From Nitrosopumilus sp. (GTDB lineage: Archaea > Thermoproteota > Nitrososphaeria > Nitrososphaerales > Nitrosopumilaceae), in assembly GCA_965219345.1 (NCBI GenBank), contig OZ244732.1:896001-960000 (forward strand): a stretch of DNA of 64,000 bases, given 5' to 3'. Position 1 is the first letter of the stretch, and each line of letters starts with the position of its first letter. Below, in pieces: positions 12,837-61,182 of this stretch. The notes under the pieces are model-generated. The model was not told the DNA's origin, did no database searches, and saw only the letters and a list, made by a program, of their open reading frames with translations. A program made the position numbers and the translations under genes.

Positions 12837-15800
12837 AAAATAAAGAGATGGAGAGAATTTCCTTTGTTATTTTAATTTCCACGCTGATGTTGGCCTCTTT
12901 GTCCATTGTTCCGGCACATGCGGCGGAGCACCCGACAATCACCGCAGCTTCTGTAACCTTGGCTACCAGCATAGTCCTGACGTATGATGAGAATGTAAAC
13001 GTCACAACGATAGACGGCGCAGGATTCGCCCTCTCTGACGGGGGAACGGTGACGGCAAACTCTGATCCCGAAGGTTCGGACGACACCATAACCCTTACCG
13101 TCTCTGGCATCACAACATCCGATGCTCCAGTTATAACTTACATCGCTCCACCTGGCACCGTGGTTGACGCGGAATCAAACCCGGCAGCAGACCAGACCTT
13201 TGACCGCACAACCGATAACGCGCCGCCAACCGTGTCCTCCATTGCAACTGCCGGCACATTGGCAATTGATATCGTACTGTCCGAAGACGTCACAATAAAC
13301 GGTGCGGCACCAGGAGACTTTGCGCTGTCCGGCACCATATCCACAAATCCTACCGTGACTGGAATCACGGCCGCTGCCGACACGGTCACCCCTGCCCTCA
13401 GCAGTGTGCTTGATAGTAATGATGTCATCAACCTGGCATACGACAAAACCACGGGCAGCATAGATGACATTCCTGCTCCTCCTCCTCCGTCCTTTGTCGG
13501 CTCCTTCTCGGTAGACTCACAAAACATCGTCCCACAAGGCCTGGCCTTCTCTGCTGACGGATACAAGATGTTTGTAATGGATTCTATCTTTGATTTGGTT
13601 AACGAGTACGCGCTGCCAAAGCCATTTACTTTGCTTCCGCAGCCAAACTCGCTTGCCAGCTTTGATGCAAGGTCGGTCACAAACAACATTGCATCACCAC
13701 GCGGTGAAATTGATCCCTCGATAGATACCACCCCACCGGAAATCACCGCAGCTGCCGTGACCTCCCTTACCGAGATACTCCTGACATACAGCGAGAACAT
13801 AGACGTCACAACCACAGACGGCGAAGGATTCGCCCTCTCTGACGGAGGAACGGTGTCGGCAAACTCTGATCCCGCCAGTACGGACGACACCATAACCCTT
13901 ACCGTCTCTGGCATCACCACAGCATCCGATGCTCCAAACGTGATTTACACCGAGTCTGATGGCTCCGTGACAGATACCGCGTCAAACCCGGCCGAAGACC
14001 AGACCTTTACTGACACCACCCCGCTACCAGATACTATTCCACCAACAATCACCGCAGCTGCCGTGACCTCCCTTACCGAGATACTCCTGACATACAGCGA
14101 GAACATAGACGTCACAACCACAGACGGCGAAGGATTCGCCCTCTCTGACGGAGGAACGGTGTCGGCAAACTCTGATCCCGCCAGTACGGACGACACCATA
14201 ACCCTTACCGTCTCTGGCATCACCACAGCATCCGATGCTCCAAACGTGATTTACACCGAGTCTGATGGCTCCGTGACAGATACCGCGTCAAACCCGGCCG
14301 AAGACCAGACCTTTACTGACACCACCCCGCTACCAGATACTATTCCACCAACAATCACCGCAGCTGCCGTGACCTCCCTTACCGAGATACTCCTGACATA
14401 CAGCGAGAACATAGACGTCACAACCACAGACGGCGAAGGATTCGCCCTCTCTGACGGAGGAACGGTGTCGGCAAACTCTGATCCCGCCAGTACGGACGAC
14501 ACCATAACCCTTACCGTCTCTGGCATCACCACAGCATCCGATGCTCCAAACGTGATTTACACCGAGTCTGATGGCTCCGTGACAGATACCGCGTCAAACC
14601 CGGCCGAAGACCAGACCTTTACTGACACCACCCCGCTACCAGATACTATTCCACCAACAATCACCGCAGCTGCCGTGACCTCCCTTACCGAGATACTCCT
14701 GACATACAGCGAGAACATAGACGTCACAACCACAGACGGCGAAGGATTCGCCCTCTCTGACGGAGGAACGGTGTCGGCAAACTCTGATCCCGCCAGTACG
14801 GACGACACCATAACCCTTACCGTCTCTGGCATCACCACAGCATCCGATGCTCCAAACGTGATTTACACCGAGTCTGATGGCTCCGTGACAGATACCGCGT
14901 CAAACCCGGCCGAAGACCAGACCTTTACTGACACCACCCCGCTACCAGATACTATTCCACCAACAATCACCGCAGCTGCCGTGACCTCCCTTACCGAGAT
15001 ACTCCTGACATACAGCGAGAACATAGACGTCACAACCACAGACGGCGAAGGATTCGCCCTCTCTGACGGAGGAACGGTGTCGGCAAACTCTGATCCCGCC
15101 AGTACGGACGACACCATAACCCTTACCGTCTCTGGCATCACCACAGCATCCGATGCTCCAAACGTGATTTACACCGAGTCTGATGGCTCCGTGACAGATA
15201 CCGCGTCAAACCCGGCCGAAGACCAGACCTTTACTGACACCACCCCGCTACCAGATACTATTCCACCAACAATCACCGCAGCTGCCGTGACCTCCCTTAC
15301 CGAGATACTCCTGACATACAGCGAGAACATAGACGTCACAACCACAGACGGCGAAGGATTCGCCCTCTCTGACGGAGGAACGGTGTCGGCAAACTCTGAT
15401 CCCGCCAGTACGGACGACACCATAACCCTTACCGTCTCTGGCATCACCACAGCATCCGATGCTCCAAACGTGATTTACACCGAGTCTGATGGCTCCGTGA
15501 CAGATACCGCGTCAAACCCGGCCGAAGACCAGACCTTTACTGACACCACCCCGCTACCAGATACTATTCCACCAACAATCACCGCAGCTGCCGTGACCTC
15601 CCTTACCGAGATACTCCTGACATACAGCGAGAACATAGACGTCACAACCACAGACGGCGAAGGATTCGCCCTCTCTGACGGAGGAACGGTGTCGGCAAAC
15701 TCTGATCCCGCCAGTACGGACGACACCATAACCCTTACCGTCTCTGGCATCACCACAGCATCCGATGCTCCAAACGTGATTTACACCGAGTCTGATGGCT

Positions 15801-18235
15801 CCGTGACAGATACCGCGTCAAACCCGGCCGAAGACCAGACCTTTACTGACACCACCCCGCTACCAGATACTATTCCACCAACAATCACCGCAGCTGCCGT
15901 GACCTCCCTTACCGAGATACTCCTGACATACAGCGAGAACATAGACGTCACAACCACAGACGGCGAAGGATTCGCCCTCTCTGACGGAGGAACGGTGTCG
16001 GCAAACTCTGATCCCGCCAGTACGGACGACACCATAACCCTTACCGTCTCTGGCATCACCACAGCATCCGATGCTCCAAACGTGATTTACACCGAGTCTG
16101 ATGGCTCCGTGACAGATACCGCGTCAAACCCGGCCGAAGACCAGACCTTTACTGACACCACCCCGCTACCAGATACTATTCCACCAACAATCACCGCAGC
16201 TGCCGTGACCTCCCTTACCGAGATACTCCTGACATACAGCGAGAACATAGACGTCACAACCACAGACGGCGAAGGATTCGCCCTCTCTGACGGAGGAACG
16301 GTGTCGGCAAACTCTGATCCCGCCAGTACGGACGACACCATAACCCTTACCGTCTCTGGCATTACCGACACATCCGATACTCCAGCCATCACCTATACCG
16401 ATTCACTTGGCACCGTAGCAGATACCGCGTCAAACCCAGCAGCAAACCAGACCTTTACCGGTACAACCGATAACGCGCCGCCAACCGTATCCTCCATTGC
16501 AACTGCTGGCACATCAACAATTGATATCGTGCTGTCCGAAGACGTTACAATAAACGGTGCGGCACCCGAAGACTTTGTGCTGTCCGGCACCATATCCACG
16601 GACCCGGTCGTAACCGAAATCACCGCCATTGCCGCTGCCAACACGGTCACCCTTACCCTTAACGATACGCTTGATCATGATGATGTCATCCTCCTGGCAT
16701 ACACCAAAACCACGGGCAGCATAGATGACATTCCTGCCGCTTCTGCCTTCCCTGACGGCTCCTTCTCGGTAGGTTCACAGGACACAACCCCAAACGGCCT
16801 GGCCTTCTCTGCTAACGGAACCAGCATGTTTGTCATAGGCAGCGGTAACGATGCCGTACACCAGTACGCGCTACCCGCCCCATTTGACATATCCAATGTC
16901 ACCGGCACATCGGATGTCTCCCATGTCGCCCGTTTACTGGTAGGTTCACAGGACACAACCCCAAACGGCCTGGCCTTCTCTGCTAACGGAACCAGCATGT
17001 TTGTCATAGGCAGCGTTAACGTTGCCGTATACCAGTACGCGCTACCCTCCCCATTTGACATATCCAATGTCACCGGCGTATCCAATGTCACCCTTGCCAG
17101 CTCCTTCCTGGTAGGTTCACAGGACATGTTCCCGCGAGACGTGGCCTTCTCCAACGACGGACACAGGATGTTTGTAGTGGGTGAACAGAGTGATGCCGTA
17201 CACCAGTACGATCTGGCCGCCCCCTTTGACGTATCCACTGCCTCCTATGACGACATCTCCTTCTCAGTACTTTCACAAGACAACTCCCCGCGGGGCCTGG
17301 CCTTCTCCAATGACGGAACCAGCATGTTTGTCATAGGCAGCGTTAACGTTGCCGTATACCAGTACGCGCTACCCGCCCCATTTGACATATCCCATGTCAC
17401 CGGCATATCGGATGTCTCCTATGCCGGCTCCTTCCCGGTAGGTTCACAAGAGTCATCCCCGCGAGGACTGGCCTTCTCCAACGACGGTACCAGGATGTTT
17501 GTAGTGGGCTCTAACAGCGATGCCGTACACCGGTACGCGCTGTCCGAACAGTTCAACCTGCTTCCGCAACCAAACTCGCTTGCCAGCTTTGCGGCAATTT
17601 CTGTCACAAACAACATTGCACCGCCCGTTGTGGATGATACGGAGAAACCAGAACCTGAACCGGAAAGAAAGCCCGAAAAGAGCGGCAGAGGCGGTGGCGG
17701 CGGTGGCGGCCGTACCGGCGTCAGTCCTAGCGGAGAACCCCTGTCCAACATTGAGCTTTACGGCGTTTCATGGAACTGTGAGACGGGCCTAATCCGAATA
17801 ATAACCGGTGATGACTCGTCTACGCTGTCGGTATCCGTCAGAACCTCCATTGGTGGCCTGGCCGAGGCCAGCCTGTCCGATGAAAGAATACCCGGCAGCA
17901 AGGTATTCACATCCCACATGGGGCCTTCCGAGACATACCTTGGCATACTGCTGGTGGACATAGCGGGACGGGACAGCAACATTAGAAACGAAAGCATCAG
18001 CATAAAACAGTGCGTTGGCGAGAAGACATATGATGGTGATAATAATGGTGATATGTCAGATACGCCAAAAAAGTCCCAGTCCAGTAGTAGCAGCAGCAGC
18101 GCATCCAAAGGCGACATGGAATGCAAGCCGGGCTTTACGCTGGTCAAGAACCTGAGAGATGATCTTGCCTGCCTCCTTGACCGCTCGGTACAGCCATTGA
18201 TAGAGCGCGGCTGGGCGGAATCAATAGTCGGATAA
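12830..18235 (+). CDS. giant secreted/surface protein with Ig-like repeats and beta-propeller blades (likely start ATG 12848)
   Basis: Signal peptide ending PAHA; Thr/Asp-rich 102-aa repeats; P.GLAFS.DG..MFV blades; Gly/Ser linkers; visibly much higher GC than the flanks. Confidence 0.85.
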   Translation: MCENKEMERISFVILISTLMLASLSIVPAHAAEHPTITAASVTLATSIVLTYDENVNVTTIDGAGFALSDGGTVTANSDPEGSDDTITLTVSGITTSDAPVITYIAPPGTVVDAESNPAADQTFDRTTDNAPPTVSSIATAGTLAIDIVLSEDVTINGAAPGDFALSGTISTNPTVTGITAAADTVTPALSSVLDSNDVINLAYDKTTGSIDDIPAPPPPSFVGSFSVDSQNIVPQGLAFSADGYKMFVMDSIFDLVNEYALPKPFTLLPQPNSLASFDARSVTNNIASPRGEIDPSIDTTPPEITAAAVTSLTEILLTYSENIDVTTTDGEGFALSDGGTVSANSDPASTDDTITLTVSGITTASDAPNVIYTESDGSVTDTASNPAEDQTFTDTTPLPDTIPPTITAAAVTSLTEILLTYSENIDVTTTDGEGFALSDGGTVSANSDPASTDDTITLTVSGITTASDAPNVIYTESDGSVTDTASNPAEDQTFTDTTPLPDTIPPTITAAAVTSLTEILLTYSENIDVTTTDGEGFALSDGGTVSANSDPASTDDTITLTVSGITTASDAPNVIYTESDGSVTDTASNPAEDQTFTDTTPLPDTIPPTITAAAVTSLTEILLTYSENIDVTTTDGEGFALSDGGTVSANSDPASTDDTITLTVSGITTASDAPNVIYTESDGSVTDTASNPAEDQTFTDTTPLPDTIPPTITAAAVTSLTEILLTYSENIDVTTTDGEGFALSDGGTVSANSDPASTDDTITLTVSGITTASDAPNVIYTESDGSVTDTASNPAEDQTFTDTTPLPDTIPPTITAAAVTSLTEILLTYSENIDVTTTDGEGFALSDGGTVSANSDPASTDDTITLTVSGITTASDAPNVIYTESDGSVTDTASNPAEDQTFTDTTPLPDTIPPTITAAAVTSLTEILLTYSENIDVTTTDGEGFALSDGGTVSANSDPASTDDTITLTVSGITTASDAPNVIYTESDGSVTDTASNPAEDQTFTDTTPLPDTIPPTITAAAVTSLTEILLTYSENIDVTTTDGEGFALSDGGTVSANSDPASTDDTITLTVSGITTASDAPNVIYTESDGSVTDTASNPAEDQTFTDTTPLPDTIPPTITAAAVTSLTEILLTYSENIDVTTTDGEGFALSDGGTVSANSDPASTDDTITLTVSGITDTSDTPAITYTDSLGTVADTASNPAANQTFTGTTDNAPPTVSSIATAGTSTIDIVLSEDVTINGAAPEDFVLSGTISTDPVVTEITAIAAANTVTLTLNDTLDHDDVILLAYTKTTGSIDDIPAASAFPDGSFSVGSQDTTPNGLAFSANGTSMFVIGSGNDAVHQYALPAPFDISNVTGTSDVSHVARLLVGSQDTTPNGLAFSANGTSMFVIGSVNVAVYQYALPSPFDISNVTGVSNVTLASSFLVGSQDMFPRDVAFSNDGHRMFVVGEQSDAVHQYDLAAPFDVSTASYDDISFSVLSQDNSPRGLAFSNDGTSMFVIGSVNVAVYQYALPAPFDISHVTGISDVSYAGSFPVGSQESSPRGLAFSNDGTRMFVVGSNSDAVHRYALSEQFNLLPQPNSLASFAAISVTNNIAPPVVDDTEKPEPEPERKPEKSGRGGGGGGGRTGVSPSGEPLSNIELYGVSWNCETGLIRIITGDDSSTLSVSVRTSIGGLAEASLSDERIPGSKVFTSHMGPSETYLGILLVDIAGRDSNIRNESISIKQCVGEKTYDGDNNGDMSDTPKKSQSSSSSSSASKGDMECKPGFTLVKNLRDDLACLLDRSVQPLIERGWAESIVG
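13742..16360 (+). repeat. 306-bp tandem repeat, about 8.5 essentially identical units
   Basis: ACCGCAGCTGCCGTGACC recurs at 13745, 14051, 14357, 14663, 14969, 15275, 15581, 15887 and 16193. Confidence 0.95.
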
Positions 18236-19625: not shown

Positions 19626-20040
19626 TTATTCCAAATCTTTTTTCACCTCTTCGAATTCACCCTTTGAGATATCCCCCTGGCATACCTTGCCTTGAGAATT
19701 GTTATCGGGTTCTCATCAGCAGAAGACCTGGCTGGCATGTTCTTTTTGTCCTTGGCAACATTGATCTTCTCTCTGACACAGTCGTATATTTTTTCTGCCA
19801 TCTCCTTTTGGTACTGCTCCTAGCTGACGGGGCAGTCCATACAAGCTGACACAGTCGTATATTTTTTCTGCCATCTCCTTTGGTATGGCATCTATCACGC
19901 CTTCAGTCCCTGCCCCGTATCGTAGTCTTTCTGTCATACTTTGATATTTCAATCAGACCGGGAATCGCAAACACAAGCGATGAAGAGAACAGGCCCTTCT
20001 CCAGCCTCACGTTTGTGGTCTGTCGGTAATAGTATTCCTC
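19626..20040 (-). pseudogene. SHOCT-domain protein pseudogene
   Basis: Removing the 73-bp duplication/insert restores DAIPKEMAEKIYDCVREKIN...NPITILKARYARG; a further 1-nt shift gives DISKGEFEEVKKDLE, which matches SHOCT. Confidence 0.7.
19773..19881. repeat. 36-bp direct repeat flanking a 37-bp insert (single-spacer CRISPR-like scar)
   Basis: CTGACACAGTCGTATATTTTTTCTGCCATCTCCTTT at 19773-19808 and 19846-19881. Confidence 0.9.
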
Positions 20041-20044
20041 AATG

Positions 20045-20068
20045 GGTTCTGATAAATTCTGATGATCC
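20045..20068 (+). mobile_element. isolated IS6/MITE-type end
   Basis: GGTTCTGATAAATTCTGATGATCC versus the MITE end GGTTCTGGTAAATTCTGGTGATCT. Confidence 0.6.
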
Positions 20069-20336
20069 TCTTTTCCTCATTTCTCAAATATATTATGAGT
20101 CTAGTATAATATTAGATGTTGACAACTAATTTGATAAGATATTGGGTTGAGCACAAAGCCAATCTTTGATGATCATACGGATCTAAAGCGCAGCTAAGCA
20201 CATTCTGACTCGTCTGCATATAACTGGAATCCCTCACCTGTCAGATGGAAAAAAGCGTCAGACTCTGAGCTCTGACTCGTATCTTTATGCTCCTTTCAAG
20301 TTCTGTCTTCCTACCACATTTGTCTCACCTGATAAC

Positions 20337-20722
20337 GGTGAGACAGTATGAACAGAGGGCCGTCAATCCAGCTCGAGCAGATCCCCGAATTCATTGAGAT
20401 GCTAAAGTGGGTATGCGAGAGATATTCCAAAGGTAAAATCGGATCTAAGATGGCAAGGACTGGGCACGTTTGCAGATTTTATAGAAGAAGAAGAATAATA
20501 ATAATAATGATGATGATGATGCAAATCACTGCAAGCAATGATGCCGTGTATGACCCCCCGATAATCTCTGATGCCATGACAAGGCATCCTGCCAAGATAA
20601 TACATGACGCGTGGAAGCTCTTGGGAGTTGCACGGACTCTGTGCGCCTAAGAAAGCACAAAAAGACAATCAAAAAGATAGGCGGGAACCCGTAGGAATTC
20701 TTGACTCCTAACATTTTTTTAG
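20337..20722 (+). repeat. ~390-bp GC-rich segment, with an inverted copy at 23181-23619
   Basis: Long collinear reverse-complement match by eye; each copy precedes an antitoxin-like ORF. Confidence 0.9.
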
Positions 20723-20744
20723 TGGTACAACATACATGAGACAC

Positions 20745-20873
20745 ATGTCAGATACAAGGGAGGTAGATGATCTTACTCCTGAGGAGATCAAAGATATTGA
20801 TGAATTCTATCAATCAAAAGACAGAAAAACATCATCAATTGAGGAATTTCTTGAAGAATTGCATAACTCTTGA
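20745..20873 (+). CDS. putative antitoxin (42 aa, acidic)
   Basis: MSDTREVDDLTPEEIKDIDEFYQSKDRKTSSIEEFLEELHNS; its stop overlaps the toxin start. Confidence 0.7.
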   Translation: MSDTREVDDLTPEEIKDIDEFYQSKDRKTSSIEEFLEELHNS

Positions 20874-21139
20874 CTGGATGGATTCCAGATAGACGTCCCA
20901 TATTTTCCAAACAATTTGGTAGATTAGATTCCAAAATACAAAAAAGAGTTGAAGAAGCCGTATTGGAACTACTCACTACTGAAAATCCTGCACGCCTTGG
21001 AAAATACAAGCAGGGCAAGAGAGTGTTTGCATACGATATAGGCAGAAAGTACAGGATAATCTACAATGTCAACTGGAGTGACAACACGATTGAATTTCTC
21101 AGGGTATGTGATCACAAGTCAGTCTACGGCAAAGACTAA
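20870..21139 (+). CDS. RelE/ParE family toxin
   Basis: FSKQFGRLDSKIQKRVEEAV...IGRKYRIIY...LRVCDHKSVY. Confidence 0.85.
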   Translation: MTGWIPDRRPIFSKQFGRLDSKIQKRVEEAVLELLTTENPARLGKYKQGKRVFAYDIGRKYRIIYNVNWSDNTIEFLRVCDHKSVYGKD

Positions 21140-21504: not shown

Positions 21505-22018
21505 AATGGATGATGATACCCGTTATTGGCTGGCTTCTGATGTTGCAGACAACAAGTTCCAGCACGTGCCGATAACCTGTTGAGATTAACCAAGCTACAA
21601 GCTGGCAAGAATCCTAGAAATTTCATTACTGATGGACTTCCAGCTTACATGAAATCATCAAAGAGAGTGTGTTTGGAAGAAAGACAAACCATGTCAGACA
21701 TATCCACTTGGCAGGAAAAAGAGACAGGGATAATAACAATAAAATGGAAAGACTGAACGGTGAAATAAGAGATCGTGAAAAGGTATTCAGAGGTCTCAAA
21801 AAGATGGATACTGGAATACTTGATGGAATGAGAGTCTGCTATAATTTCACAAAAAAACATGGAGCTCTAAAAGGCAAGACACCAGCATAGGCTTCATTAA
21901 TTGAGGCGGATGGTAGGAACAAATGGAAGACAATAATTCAAAATGTCTCACTAAACAAGGATTCTGAATAGGTATGAAATTTCAGGGAAAATCCATATCA
22001 CGAAGACTACACAGAACC
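21505..22018 (+). mobile_element. IS6-family (IS240-like DDE) transposase pseudogene with right end
   Basis: TRYWLAS, FITDGLPAY, NNNKMERLNGEIRDREK, YNF..KH..LKGKTPA; contains frameshift and stop; ends ...ACACAGAACC. Confidence 0.85.
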
Positions 22019-22732
22019 TACAGAAAAAAACCCTAAATAATTATATTGTGTAGTAAAAAGTAAAGTCTCATGACAATAGATTATACGAAACTAACAGCAA
22101 AAGAATTAGTCGAAAAAATCAAAAGTGGAGAAATCGGTTCTTGTGTGTATAGTACGATGGAAGAATTTTATGAAGGACTGAGACAGCATGCGCCTAATTC
22201 TAGTTGACGGCTTTTGGCTACAATTTTTTACATTTGATCCAAACAATGGTGATCGAGATTTAATCACTACAGCTCTTTCAAATATGCAAAGTTTAGCTGC
22301 CACTTGCATTGTTAGAAGTTAAAAATGATTATTCATATATTCAATTCCCAATTAAAAACAATAAATATTGCAATTCGTTTTAGATGCTGATTCTGTTATC
22401 GCTATGATTTATGATGGTAATAAAGCATCATTTGAAGAAAACCCCGCTAATCATTAGTTATTCATTTTACAAAAGATTCAGGGAGTTATTTAATTTTAAA
22501 TGATAAAAAGTAGTCTGAAGCAGTGACTTTGAATCCAAGACCCCTGAAACAAAAGAAATCAGAGCTTGAAAGGAACATAAGAAGATACAAGTCAGATCTT
22601 AGAGTCTGACGCTTTTTTTCTAACTGACAGACGATATCTTTTTCCAGGCATTAAGATAGTGTTTATTCTTTGATTTAAATCTCCAAACTCATTCTAATCT
22701 GTTAAGATCTTATAATGACTCTTCCAACAATA

Positions 22733-22904
22733 GGTTCTGGTAAAAAACGGTGATCAGGATCACCAGAATTTAACAGCATGGTTATGACAGATAATTTCAA
22801 GAAAATTACCCGGTACTGGTTATCCCAGGATTTCAAAGAGCGATTCGGAGAGAAGATCCATGTCTGATGATTTATGGTGCAGATCACCAGAATTTACCAG
22901 AACC
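22733..22904 (-). mobile_element. MITE copy 3
   Basis: Same TIRs and body as the other copies. Confidence 0.9.
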
Positions 22905-22910
22905 TTCCAG

Positions 22911-23159
22911 CTAGTCATCTTTCTTCAGATCTTCTAATAGATCCTCAACATCGGAGAACACCTTTCCGGCTGGCTCGTTTTGCGCATCGATGATACCAAG
23001 TACTTCTTCAGGAATCAAATCATCTTCATGCAAGTCTTTTAGGTATTGCTCGAAGCTTTTAGATTTTGAGATTTCATCTTTCTCAAAATCTTCCCTGATT
23101 ATCTCCAGCTTGTCTTCTGGAAGATGGTCAAAGTGGTTTACGGTCCTGGTTTCAGACAT
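22911..23159 (-). CDS. orphan antitoxin-like acidic protein
   Basis: Starts MSETR like the 20745 ORF and ends FSDVEDLLEDLK; same upstream repeat; MITE immediately downstream. Confidence 0.6.
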   Translation of the reverse strand: MSETRTVNHFDHLPEDKLEIIREDFEKDEISKSKSFEQYLKDLHEDDLIPEEVLGIIDAQNEPAGKVFSDVEDLLEDLKKDD

Positions 23160-23180
23160 GTCTTTTTTATTTTCTGCATC

Positions 23181-23619
23181 CTAAAAAATGTTAGGAGTCA
23201 AGAATTCCTACGGGTTCCCGCCTTGTCTTTTTGATTGTCTTTTTGTGTCTTCTTAGGCGCACAGAGTCCTGTGCAATTCCTAGGATCTTCCACGCGTCAT
23301 GTATTACCTTGGCAGGATGCCTTGCCATGGCATCAGAGATTATCGAGTCATTAATTATTTTTAGTTAGTTTTTGATTTTTCAAGCAGGATGCCTTGCCAT
23401 GGCATCAGAGATTATCGAGGGGGTCATACTACGGCATCATTGCTTGCAGTGATTTGCATCATTATTCTTCTTCTATAAAATCTGCAAACGTGCCCAGTCC
23501 TTGCCATCTTGGACTCGATTTTACCTTTGGAATATCTCTCGTATATCCCTTTAGCATCTCAATGAATTCGGGAATCTGCTCGAGCTGGATTGACGGTCCT
23601 CTGTTCATACTGTCTCACC
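23181..23619 (-). repeat. inverted copy of the 20337-20722 segment
   Basis: Reverse-complement match carrying an extra 72 bp (duplication plus insert). Confidence 0.9.
23312..23419. repeat. 36-bp direct repeat flanking a 36-bp insert (single-spacer CRISPR-like scar)
   Basis: GCAGGATGCCTTGCCATGGCATCAGAGATTATCGAG at 23312-23347 and 23384-23419; absent from the paralogous copy at ~20557-20592. Confidence 0.92.
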
Positions 23620-35999: not shown

Positions 36000-37055
36000 A
36001 TGAAAATGAGGTTTATAGGGTTCCTAGCATTTGCGTTGTTATCCATCTCTATTCTATCTTATGGTGTAAATGGTTCTGTCTTTGCAGATAGTCATAACAT
36101 TCCTCCATTATCTGTATCAACTGAATTGCTAACATATGCAAATGGTGGAGAAGTTGTAGTTTCTGGAAGTATAAAAAATTATGATTCTACATCTACAGCT
36201 GACCTTACTTTTCTTGTTAAATCCCCTAATGGTAATATGGTCTATATTGGGCAACTAACTCCAAGTTCTGATGGTTCGTTTGAACATACTTTCACTGCTG
36301 GTGGTCCTCAATGGACATCAAGCGGCGATTATATTATTAAATTTCATTTTGGTGCCATGACAGGTGAAACTACACTTATTTACACTGGTGGAGAAGCACC
36401 AGCATCCACAATAACTTGTGGTTCTAATGAAACTCTAATAGACGGAGTATGTGTTGAAAACGAACCAGAAGAAGTAACTTGTGGTTCTAATGAAACTCTA
36501 ATAAACGGAGTATGTGTTGAAAACGAACCAGAAGAAGTAACTTGTGGTTCTAATGAAACTCTAATAAACGGAGTATGTGTTGAAAACGAACCAGATCTTA
36601 CGTGTGGGGCTGGAACTGAATTAGTAAATGGAATTTGCCAAGTAATTAAAACTGATGAACCTGAAGCAAAAGGTGGAGGTTGTTTAATTGCAACAGCTGC
36701 ATATGGAACTGAATTAGCACCACAAGTACAATTCCTCAGAGAAATTAGAGATAATACCGTAATGAGTACTGAATCTGGTGCAGCATTCATGACTGGATTT
36801 AACCAATTGTATTATTCATTCTCACCAACAATTGCTGACATGGAAAGAGAAAACCCAATGTTCCAAGAAGTAGTGAGAGCCTTTATCACTCCAATGGTAT
36901 CAACACTATCAATTATGACATTGGCTGAAGATGGTTCAGAAGTTGAAGTTCTGGGACTCGGAATTTCTGTAATTGTACTTAACTTGGGAATGTATATTGC
37001 AGCACCAGCATTAATTGGATTCAAAATTCATAACCATTTCAAATCTAGAAAATAA
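36000..37055 (+). CDS. CFI-box-CTERM domain surface protein
   Basis: Signal peptide, GGGCLIATAAYGTELAPQVQFLREIRD, C-terminal TM helix. Confidence 0.9.
   Translation: MKMRFIGFLAFALLSISILSYGVNGSVFADSHNIPPLSVSTELLTYANGGEVVVSGSIKNYDSTSTADLTFLVKSPNGNMVYIGQLTPSSDGSFEHTFTAGGPQWTSSGDYIIKFHFGAMTGETTLIYTGGEAPASTITCGSNETLIDGVCVENEPEEVTCGSNETLINGVCVENEPEEVTCGSNETLINGVCVENEPDLTCGAGTELVNGICQVIKTDEPEAKGGGCLIATAAYGTELAPQVQFLREIRDNTVMSTESGAAFMTGFNQLYYSFSPTIADMERENPMFQEVVRAFITPMVSTLSIMTLAEDGSEVEVLGLGISVIVLNLGMYIAAPALIGFKIHNHFKSRK
36413..36594 (+). repeat. 60-bp coding tandem repeat (about 3 copies plus a diverged fourth)
   Basis: TCGSNETLI(D/N)GVCVENEPEEV repeated. Confidence 0.9.
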
Positions 37056-59820: not shown

Positions 59821-61182
59821 GTGTTAGGACGCTTTATGGGAATAATGCTGGTGTTGATCGCATTATCTTCTTTAATTCTTACTGAAGTTTTTGCTGATTC
59901 CTACGTTGAGGATTTTGTTGAGCCTGAAATTACCTTACTTTATACTGACAAAAAACATTACACTGACAAAGACCTGATCAAAATTACTGGTCTTGTTTCC
60001 GCACTAGATTCTCCTACAGTGTTAATCGGAGTTTATGATCCCTCTGGAATGCCTGCAGGATTTTATATTGTCCCAATTGATTCTGATTTAGAATTTTCAA
60101 CAAGTTTTCCTGTAAAAGCTGGAGTCAATTTTAGAACAGATGGAACTTATTCAATAAAAGCACATTATGTAGAAACAGAAGCAACATCTTTTTTTGATTA
60201 CAATGAAATTTTACAACCAACCATTGAGAAACCTGTAGAAACCATTGAGAAACCTGTAGAAACCATTGAGAAACCTGTAGAAACCATTGAGAAACCTGTA
60301 GAAACCATTGAGAAACCTGTAGAAACCATTGAGAAACCTGTAGAAACCATTGAGAAACCTGTAGAAACCATTGAGAAACCTGTAGAAACCATTGAGAAAC
60401 CTGTAGAAACCATTGAGAAACCTGTAGAAACCATTGAGAAACCTGTAGAAACCATTGAAGAAAAAATTATTTCTGATGTTACGAACATTTCAATCGATGT
60501 GCAAATAATTAAAGAAGAATCTAATGATAATTACGAATCTGTTGATAAAAATTCTATAATTAGTAACACAAAAAAAATTACACCAACAACTGAACTCAAA
60601 AAACATGATAATCTAACTGTAGAAGACATAGAATTAGGAAAACTACTAAATCAAATTAATCTAAAATGTGATTCAAGTACTTTTACTGATACAATTTCAT
60701 ATTATGATGGAATGGGTCCTGCGTTGTATCGTTTATGTAAATTTGATAGTTCTTTGAATTTTTTTAATGACTCTTTGATCAATAATCCCAATGATGTGGA
60801 AATTCTTGTAAACAAAGGTTCTACCTTAGGTAAATTGGGATATTTTTCAGAGGCAATAGTATACTATGATCAAGCAATCAATGTTGATCCTGATTTCCTA
60901 CCTGCTAAAAATAACAAGGCTAATGCCCTTGCAAATCTAGGAAATTTTGATGAGGCCATTTCATTGTATACTGAAATTCTAGAGGAAAACTCCGATTATA
61001 TCACTGCCAGAAATAATCTTGAAATTGCATTATCAGAAACTGAAAATGTTGTTAATCAACAACCCACTATATCTGAAAAAACTATTTCATTTGAATCTAA
61101 AAAACAAAAACCAACTAACTTTTTTGAAGAACTAAGTCATGTATTTTCTTCTTTAGGTTCTCTATTTGATTTTCTAAACTAA
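59821..61182 (+). CDS. secreted TPR protein
   Basis: NKG..L..LG...EAI..YD.A TPR motifs; low-complexity linker. Confidence 0.88.
   Translation: MLGRFMGIMLVLIALSSLILTEVFADSYVEDFVEPEITLLYTDKKHYTDKDLIKITGLVSALDSPTVLIGVYDPSGMPAGFYIVPIDSDLEFSTSFPVKAGVNFRTDGTYSIKAHYVETEATSFFDYNEILQPTIEKPVETIEKPVETIEKPVETIEKPVETIEKPVETIEKPVETIEKPVETIEKPVETIEKPVETIEKPVETIEKPVETIEEKIISDVTNISIDVQIIKEESNDNYESVDKNSIISNTKKITPTTELKKHDNLTVEDIELGKLLNQINLKCDSSTFTDTISYYDGMGPALYRLCKFDSSLNFFNDSLINNPNDVEILVNKGSTLGKLGYFSEAIVYYDQAINVDPDFLPAKNNKANALANLGNFDEAISLYTEILEENSDYITARNNLEIALSETENVVNQQPTISEKTISFESKKQKPTNFFEELSHVFSSLGSLFDFLN
60220..60450 (+). repeat. 21-bp coding tandem repeat, 11 perfect copies (TIEKPVE)
   Basis: ACCATTGAGAAACCTGTAGAA x11. 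Confidence 0.95.

Follow-up and report, generated by a model that had tools for sequence, protein, structure and literature searches.

The locus studied here raises the question of what kind of event places a few dozen nucleotides inside a gene and duplicates 36 bp of the target in doing so. The window, i.e. the whole stretch of 64,000 nucleotides that was analysed (C1:896001-960000), is part of a 1.87 Mb chromosome with a G+C content of 36%, accompanied by a 41.6-kb contig. Archaeal ribosomal proteins and archaeal amoA identify the organism as an ammonia-oxidising archaeon. Two identical 36-mers (100%) are found at window positions 19773-19808 and 19846-19881, 73 nt apart from start to start, and the 37 nt between them (19809-19845) constitute the insert. 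An earlier note on this DNA had described the region 19773..19881 as a 36-bp duplication plus a 37-bp insertion, which the identity of the two 36-mers confirms, and had taken it for a case of spacer acquisition at the wrong target, the work of an integrase with a fixed measuring length. That interpretation agrees with the 36-nt repeat of the resident CRISPR array, the spacer-like length of the inserts, the empty site in a relative and the many similar scars in the genome. With a probability of roughly 0.92 we conclude that the scars arose by off-target ('neo-CRISPR') spacer integration, carried out by the organism's own type I-G adaptation complex of a Cas4/Cas1 fusion and Cas2. This conclusion draws on observations of the scar geometry and of the donor of the insert, on sites that have remained empty, on the resident CRISPR system, on the excess of scars across the genome, on the target motif and on two further genomes in which the pattern recurs.

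The limits of the focal insertion can be placed almost exactly. The earlier note had also mentioned a parse with a 40-bp repeat and a 32-bp insert. We reject it, since the donor locus described below supplied all of the 37-mer, the TGGTA at its start included. An ambiguity of one base remains at the boundary, as the next base of the donor is C, which is also the first base of the repeat. The hairpin previously pointed out in the insert is present, but is simply coding sequence of the donor. Excision of 73 bp was said to restore the reading frame, and locally it does so, with ...KIYDCV joining REKINVAK... on the minus strand. The minus-strand ORFs 19716..19952 and 19643..19801 both hold ...MAEKIYDCV, which is the translated repeat.

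Both junctions of the insertion are spanned by contigs from other sequencing runs, namely X1, X4 and X7. In X1 and X4 separate contig pieces span positions 19779-19838/19846 and 19817-19875, and in X7 one contig piece spans 19773-19875 without any difference. No contig of X1, X4, X5 or X7 bridges the event as an empty allele, X5 having no coverage here and contigs being prone to drop rare variants. The X4 contigs over window positions 19742-20178 exhibit the same insertion together with several base changes and a 2-nt deletion at 19940. They share the scar and differ in bases, and thus represent a slightly diverged strain in which the pseudogene is still gaining indels.

The source of the insert was found on the same chromosome. 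All 37 nucleotides match C1:1636412-1636448 (37/37), which is separated from the insertion by about 720 kb. The donor site lies 3.1 kb upstream of cas4/cas1 and belongs to an ORF of 311 aa that runs without interruption and encodes a leucine carboxyl methyltransferase (LCM-like) domain. Since the donor is intact, the insertion was a copy-and-paste event. The 37-mer occurs once in the window, and on the chromosome at the insertion and this one donor locus only; the search of viral_contigs gave 0 exact matches, where exact matching is a weak test. The earlier note had named a multicopy mini-element and a local template switch as outcomes that would speak against its interpretation. Neither was found, as the insert has a single donor and this donor is remote.

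The same note had also considered that homologues might already carry the repeat. Of 40 relatives searched, one (G014) has a homologous locus, with 67-72% identity to the window and overlapping BLAST pieces. In the alignment the 36-mer region is present once in G014, and the insert and the second copy of the window face a gap of 74 columns, showing that the repeat is single in the homologue. A similar situation is seen for two scars that interrupt an ABC-transporter operon here but not in relatives, whose BLAST pieces overlap by 35-37 nt (52 of 60 relatives gave some match, and the overlap was checked by eye in G119 and G021).

The gene interrupted by the focal insertion is a bPH-like/SHOCT-like remnant on the minus strand (19626..20010), delimited by three-frame translation, the alignment with G014 and sub-threshold Pfam hits. 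It had been called a SHOCT-protein gene in the earlier note, a name that has to be regarded as tentative. Pfam searches with fragments of the broken gene gave nothing at E 0.01, and at E 10 SHOCT (PF09851) was hit with 13.1 and 12.9 bits in two different frames of the window, below the gathering score of 27. The G014 homologue gave equally sub-threshold hits to SHOCT (14.3 bits, E 0.036) and bPH_3 (E 0.068). Apart from the 73-nt event, the lesions of the remnant comprise a 1-nt deletion in a G run near 19673-19677, which splits the SHOCT-like motif over two frames, a 2-nt indel near 19900 and a degraded N-terminal part, and the G014 orthologue is likewise broken. In view of these other lesions the insertion may not be the event that inactivated the focal gene, and it is at scars elsewhere that genes are clearly disrupted. 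Genes split by other scars encode an ABC permease, an adjacent ABC ATPase, a UDP-glucose/GDP-mannose dehydrogenase, an IS1595 transposase, a 666-aa fn3/Big_9 protein and an FMN reductase; for the permease, Pfam profile positions 1-74 are found on one side of the scar and 71-174 on the other. One 75-nt event lies in frame within a giant ORF.

A second off-target integration is found in the window at 23312..23419. The 36-bp duplication (23312-23347 and 23384-23419) surrounds a 36-nt insert (23348-23383) that is identical to C1:575144-575179 (36/36). Its paralogous empty site is located in the window as well, at 20554..20592 on the minus strand, where the other arm of an inverted repeat holds one copy of the 36-mer and no insert. 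The two arms (20249-20743 and 22555-23619) are long and 85-97% complementary, and inside the inverted repeat are fragments of an integrase-core (rve_3) gene (21669-21890) and a gene for a ParE-like toxin (20870-21139). The focal insertion thus has a mobile, decaying island as its surroundings. Tandem repeats are present at several places in the window: 306 nt in 8.9 copies with 99% identity at 13741-16458 and 171 nt in 4.7 copies at 16758-17541, both of which probably encode repeated surface-protein domains, and furthermore 21 nt in 11.6 copies at 60219-60463 and 63 nt in 2.9 copies at 36412-36595, the latter two both 99% identical.

The genome contains a single CRISPR array (C1:1641728-1653821) with 164 repeats, each of exactly 36 nt and with one mismatch in total. 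Its 163 spacers measure 35 nt (8 spacers), 36 nt (37), 37 nt (35), 38 nt (34), 39 nt (23), 40 nt (13) or more (13), so that 150 of 163 fall between 35 and 40 nt. The array belongs to a complete type I-G locus, with the Cas4/Cas1 fusion and Cas2 directly upstream, and Csb2, Csb1/Cas7g, Cas8g/Csx17 and Cas3g downstream. The fusion protein matches the whole of the Cas4g/Cas1g profile (NF049935) with 754 bits (cut-off 560), and Cas2 was assigned with 36.9 bits (cut-off 24.5). The only full-length Cas1 of the genome resides in this fusion. Apart from it, the only sequence with a Cas1 signal codes for a fragment of 83 aa (C1:1123019-1123234), located well away from the CRISPR locus. The fragment matches the C-terminal part of Cas1 (71.5 bits) and may be what is left of either a second adaptation module or a casposon. 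No protospacer for the array spacers, from which the PAM of the system could be read, was found in 200 genomes of the family, where the search returned related arrays and one solitary repeat only. The latter (L024, G017:C1:1535361-1535404) stands alone and differs from the CRISPR repeat by 1 mismatch; its genome is from the same genus, and the array search found no array in that genome.

Similar scars proved to be common in the genome, as the earlier note had suggested should be checked. Isolated perfect direct repeats of 30-40 nt were counted on the chromosome, and 20 of them have spacings of 69-77 nt. The remaining 161 spacings in the range 31-200 together hold 13. When isolated repeats of at least 24 nt at spacings of 69-77 are considered (n=24), the lengths are 24 (1), 28 (3), 33 (2), 35 (2), 36 (9), 37 (4) and 38 nt (3), with a peak at 36. 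Allowing up to 2 mismatches, removing one tandem repeat and counting a paralogous pair once, we obtained 27 clean scars with repeat lengths of 35-38 nt and start-to-start distances of 70-76 nt, 17 of which have perfect repeats. The insert length, taken as the spacing minus 36, is 34-40 nt with a median of 37, to be compared with an array median of 38 (Mann-Whitney p 0.08). None of the 27 scars has a third repeat copy or has grown beyond one spacer, and all 27 inserts differ from each other. A functional CRISPR array is not an adequate description of the focal locus, which has two copies of an unrelated 36-mer inside a gene, and a transposon or MITE fails as well, as the insert is found only at the donor and the focal site and no two of the inserts are alike. 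The scars are clustered (6 gaps below 5 kb among 27, permutation p 0.005), a pattern in which hot spots and insertion-tolerant regions are not distinguishable. The paralogous pair consists of C1:37490 and C1:243305, where the same scar with an identical 36-nt insert is present in both copies of a paralogous region, one copy having 2 mismatches between its repeats; the integration is therefore older than a segmental duplication or a gene conversion.

Full-length chromosomal copies were found for 7 of the 27 inserts, six at 100% and one at 34/35. An eighth insert shows a partial match to a repeated domain family. One scar insert (C1:333438) partially matches a repeated sequence family present at many chromosomal places. 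The chromosome search returned no source for 20 of the 27 inserts, and the 26-nt cores of three other inserts without donor gave 0 exact matches in viral_contigs, a weak test since only exact matches are counted. On the other hand, for the 163 array spacers no match of more than 21 nt was found beyond the array itself. Self-derived spacers in the scars and none in the array are what would be expected if such a spacer kills the cell from within an expressed array but does no harm in a scar that is silent. The donors show no consistent PAM on their flanks, with TTN on one flank in 3 of 7 donors in this genome and in 2 of 9 in G081 (see below). Three of the seven donors lie within C1:523-575 kb, and one scar (C1:1638625) falls at the 3' end of a gene for a nucleoside deoxyribosyltransferase and is 0.9 kb upstream of cas4/1. 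The scar near cas4/1, the focal donor 3.1 kb upstream of it and the donor group at C1:523-575 kb may mark hot spots of self-acquisition.

The target sites share a weak sequence preference. For this comparison the 13 scars with repeats of exactly 36 nt were used, with each end read on its own strand, so that 26 half-sites were obtained and no orientation had to be chosen. G occupies position +4 in 18 of the 26 (chi-square p 3e-10), T occupies +1 in only 1 and +2 in 15, A occupies +7 in 16, and -2 is C or G in 19. A search in both orientations gave 12.1 bits of information, whereas 40 random sets gave 8.0 +/- 0.43 (maximum 9.3). In the focal event, +4 is A on the top strand and G on the bottom strand. 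It had been noted earlier that the duplicated sequences end in AG. This is true of both events in the window, but does not extend to a general rule, as 5 of 26 half-sites start with CT on their own strand; the common feature of the targets is G at +4, not a terminal AG. Scored with the motif matrix, the spacer-side half-site of the array ranks among the best 1.6% of random sites, and the leader-side one only among the best 8-18%. These values led us to reject the idea that the targets are look-alikes of the CRISPR repeat, whose ends have T instead of G at +4 and differ from the off-target half-site.

Two further genomes exhibit the same kind of scar. G081, from a different genus and with a G+C content of 63%, has Cas1 and an array of about 134 units with a closely related 36-nt repeat. 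Its isolated repeats of 30-40 nt number 17 at spacings of 70-74, against 5 elsewhere, and 25 clean scars were identified, so that the density is 25 per 1.9 Mb, compared with 27 per 1.9 Mb in this genome. Chromosomal donors of at least 97% identity were found for 8 of the inserts, and only one insert derives from a multicopy sequence. In the half-sites of G081, +4 is G in 8/12 and +7 is A in 7/12. The apparent duplications there are 37-39 nt more often than chance extension of 36 nt would give, the expectation being a rough estimate. G014 has the same CRISPR repeat as this genome and 7 scars in the 398.3 kb sampled. A second CRISPR region in that genome (G014:C1:1749997-1761756) contains 30-nt repeats with a period of 65-66 beside longer ones, and the sample of approx. 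398 kb contained no isolated scar of the 30-nt geometry. This points to promiscuity of the I-G-type module alone. All three scarred genomes (this genome, G014 and G081) have 36-nt repeats, i.e. one repeat length was sampled. Genome G018, which gave no Cas1 match, showed no such repeat in 398.1 kb, compared with 1-8 per equal window in this genome; it is an imperfect control, as it has kept an orphan mini-array (L149, G018:C1:252734-253135), which comprises about 6 units and has a related repeat.

From these data the following course of events, in a presumed order, can be proposed for the focal locus. The Cas4/1-Cas2 complex, as the putative catalyst, would capture a 37-nt fragment of its own chromosome from the methyltransferase-like gene 3.1 kb upstream of cas4/1. 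The fragment would then be directed to a non-CRISPR site instead of the leader-proximal repeat, and two strand-transfer attacks would take place on opposite strands, 36 bp apart, a spacing that would correspond to the ruler distance by which the 36-nt repeat is duplicated in the array. Filling of the two single-stranded gaps would finally duplicate the 36-bp target on either side of the insert. Judged from the sites used, the choice of target seems to depend on a weak half-site with two-fold symmetry, present at either end of the duplicated segment, in which +1 is not T, +2 is T, +4 is G and +6/+7 are A. The new 'repeats' bear no relation to that of the CRISPR array and are leaderless, and probably no crRNA is processed from them, which would explain why self-derived spacers survive in the scars and not in the array.

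Other explanations of the scars have to be weighed against this scheme. An unknown integrase or transposon without relation to CRISPR, which makes 36-bp target-site duplications and carries a short cargo, would be in line with the fact that such duplications are a general mark of transposition, and also with the single repeat length shared by the three scarred genomes. It is nevertheless very unlikely, since the inserts are unique and 7 of 27 were copied from ordinary chromosomal genes, the one multicopy case being confined to G081. Furthermore, the insert lengths match the array spacers and the duplication equals the repeat length, and in the 398 kb sampled of G014, which has an array of 30-nt repeats as well, the scars come only from the 36-nt system.

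Template switching at microhomologies during replication, in which the target would be copied, synthesis would jump to the donor and back, and the target would be copied again, finds some basis at the focal site. The downstream flank of the donor (CAGACA) resembles the start of the repeat (CTGACA; 5/6) and the start of the insert (TGGTA) resembles the right flank (GGTAT). Over 30 junctions the identity between donor flank and target is marginally raised (2.0 vs 1.63 of 6, p 0.046). However, the similarity between insert ends and flanks is not enriched (1.96 vs 2.0 in this genome, 2.1 vs 2.28 in G081), and we have therefore dropped microhomology as a general feature. Moreover, such a process would yield variable lengths and not 36 and 34-40 nt at 27 sites, and would have to reach a donor some 720 kb off; we consider it even less probable than an unknown integrase. 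Least probable of all is an artefact of assembly or sequencing. Misassembly can produce short duplications, but the contigs of X1, X4 and X7, which derive from two studies, cover both junctions and none joins across, and the same geometry recurs in three separately assembled genomes. Off-target integration by the type I-G complex therefore remains our preferred explanation.

Neo-CRISPR off-target integration by Cas1-Cas2 of the E. coli type I-E system was reportedly described by Nivala, Shipman and Church in 2018 (said to be in Nat Microbiol 3:310). According to a paper that cites this work, off-target integration in E. coli can spawn new arrays, with 'circumstantial evidence' for two other species (10.1101/148544), and the new repeat-spacer-repeat units were made with over-produced Cas1-Cas2 (10.1101/148544, PMC7054753). 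As far as these sources go, the scars described here resemble the E. coli products in having a spacer-sized insert, a repeat-length duplication and a site outside the array. They differ in that they arose naturally, in an archaeon with a type I-G system, with 36-bp duplications, many self-derived inserts and a single spacer each.

In vitro, Cas1-Cas2 alone integrates at non-CRISPR sites that share features of the repeat, as reported for P. furiosus (PMC6698737, PMC13748974) and T. profunda (PMC13769266), and histones or HU are reported to suppress such off-target integration (PMC6698737, PMC13748974, PMC13769266). Those assays employed plasmids or oligonucleotides, whereas the products found here are fixed in chromosomes, and the half-site of the scars, with its G at +4, is not the one found at the ends of the resident repeat. 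For S. thermophilus, ectopic spacer acquisition is reported inside arrays, at genuine CRISPR repeats (PMC7999890); integration away from the leader-proximal repeat is common to both cases, but the sites hit in this genome lie in genes and have unrelated sequences. Self-targeting spacers in arrays, derived from the host chromosome and expressed, are treated in a review (PMC6990116). They have the same host source as the self-derived spacers described here, which in contrast are all located outside the array. A literature search, which covered mostly material other than subscription journals, returned no report of natural genome-wide scars at such density.

Off-target integration has usually been seen as a side reaction of the laboratory or the test tube, and its natural cost has mostly been argued on theoretical grounds. 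The mechanism is known from laboratory work; its natural scale, the self-derived spacers and the replication of the target motif in a second genome are notable. The three wild genomes provide a dated, sequence-resolved record of it, comprising split genes for an ABC transporter, a sugar dehydrogenase and a surface protein as well as self spacers, and the target motif replicates between genomes of 36% and 63% G+C. For annotation this implies a simple rule, namely that a repeat-length duplication round a spacer-length insert is a CRISPR scar and not a mini-array or a transposon. The fidelity of adaptation in vivo, recognition by the integrase in the absence of a leader, and the frequency with which self-DNA is sampled during naive acquisition all become testable from sequence alone.

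If adaptation is indeed of low fidelity in the wild, the half-site with G at +4 and A at +6/+7 would represent the intrinsic preference of the integrase in vivo, when it is guided by neither leader nor host factors, and the scars would record a sampling of self-DNA that is unfiltered by autoimmunity and invisible in the array. Roughly one in seven retained integrations lies outside the array, with 27 against 163 in this genome and approx. 25 against approx. 134 in G081. The odds appear to us to be even that type I-G adaptation in this group of ammonia-oxidising archaea is of such low fidelity, and that CRISPR adaptation is a recurrent source of insertional mutation and of pseudogenes in their genomes.
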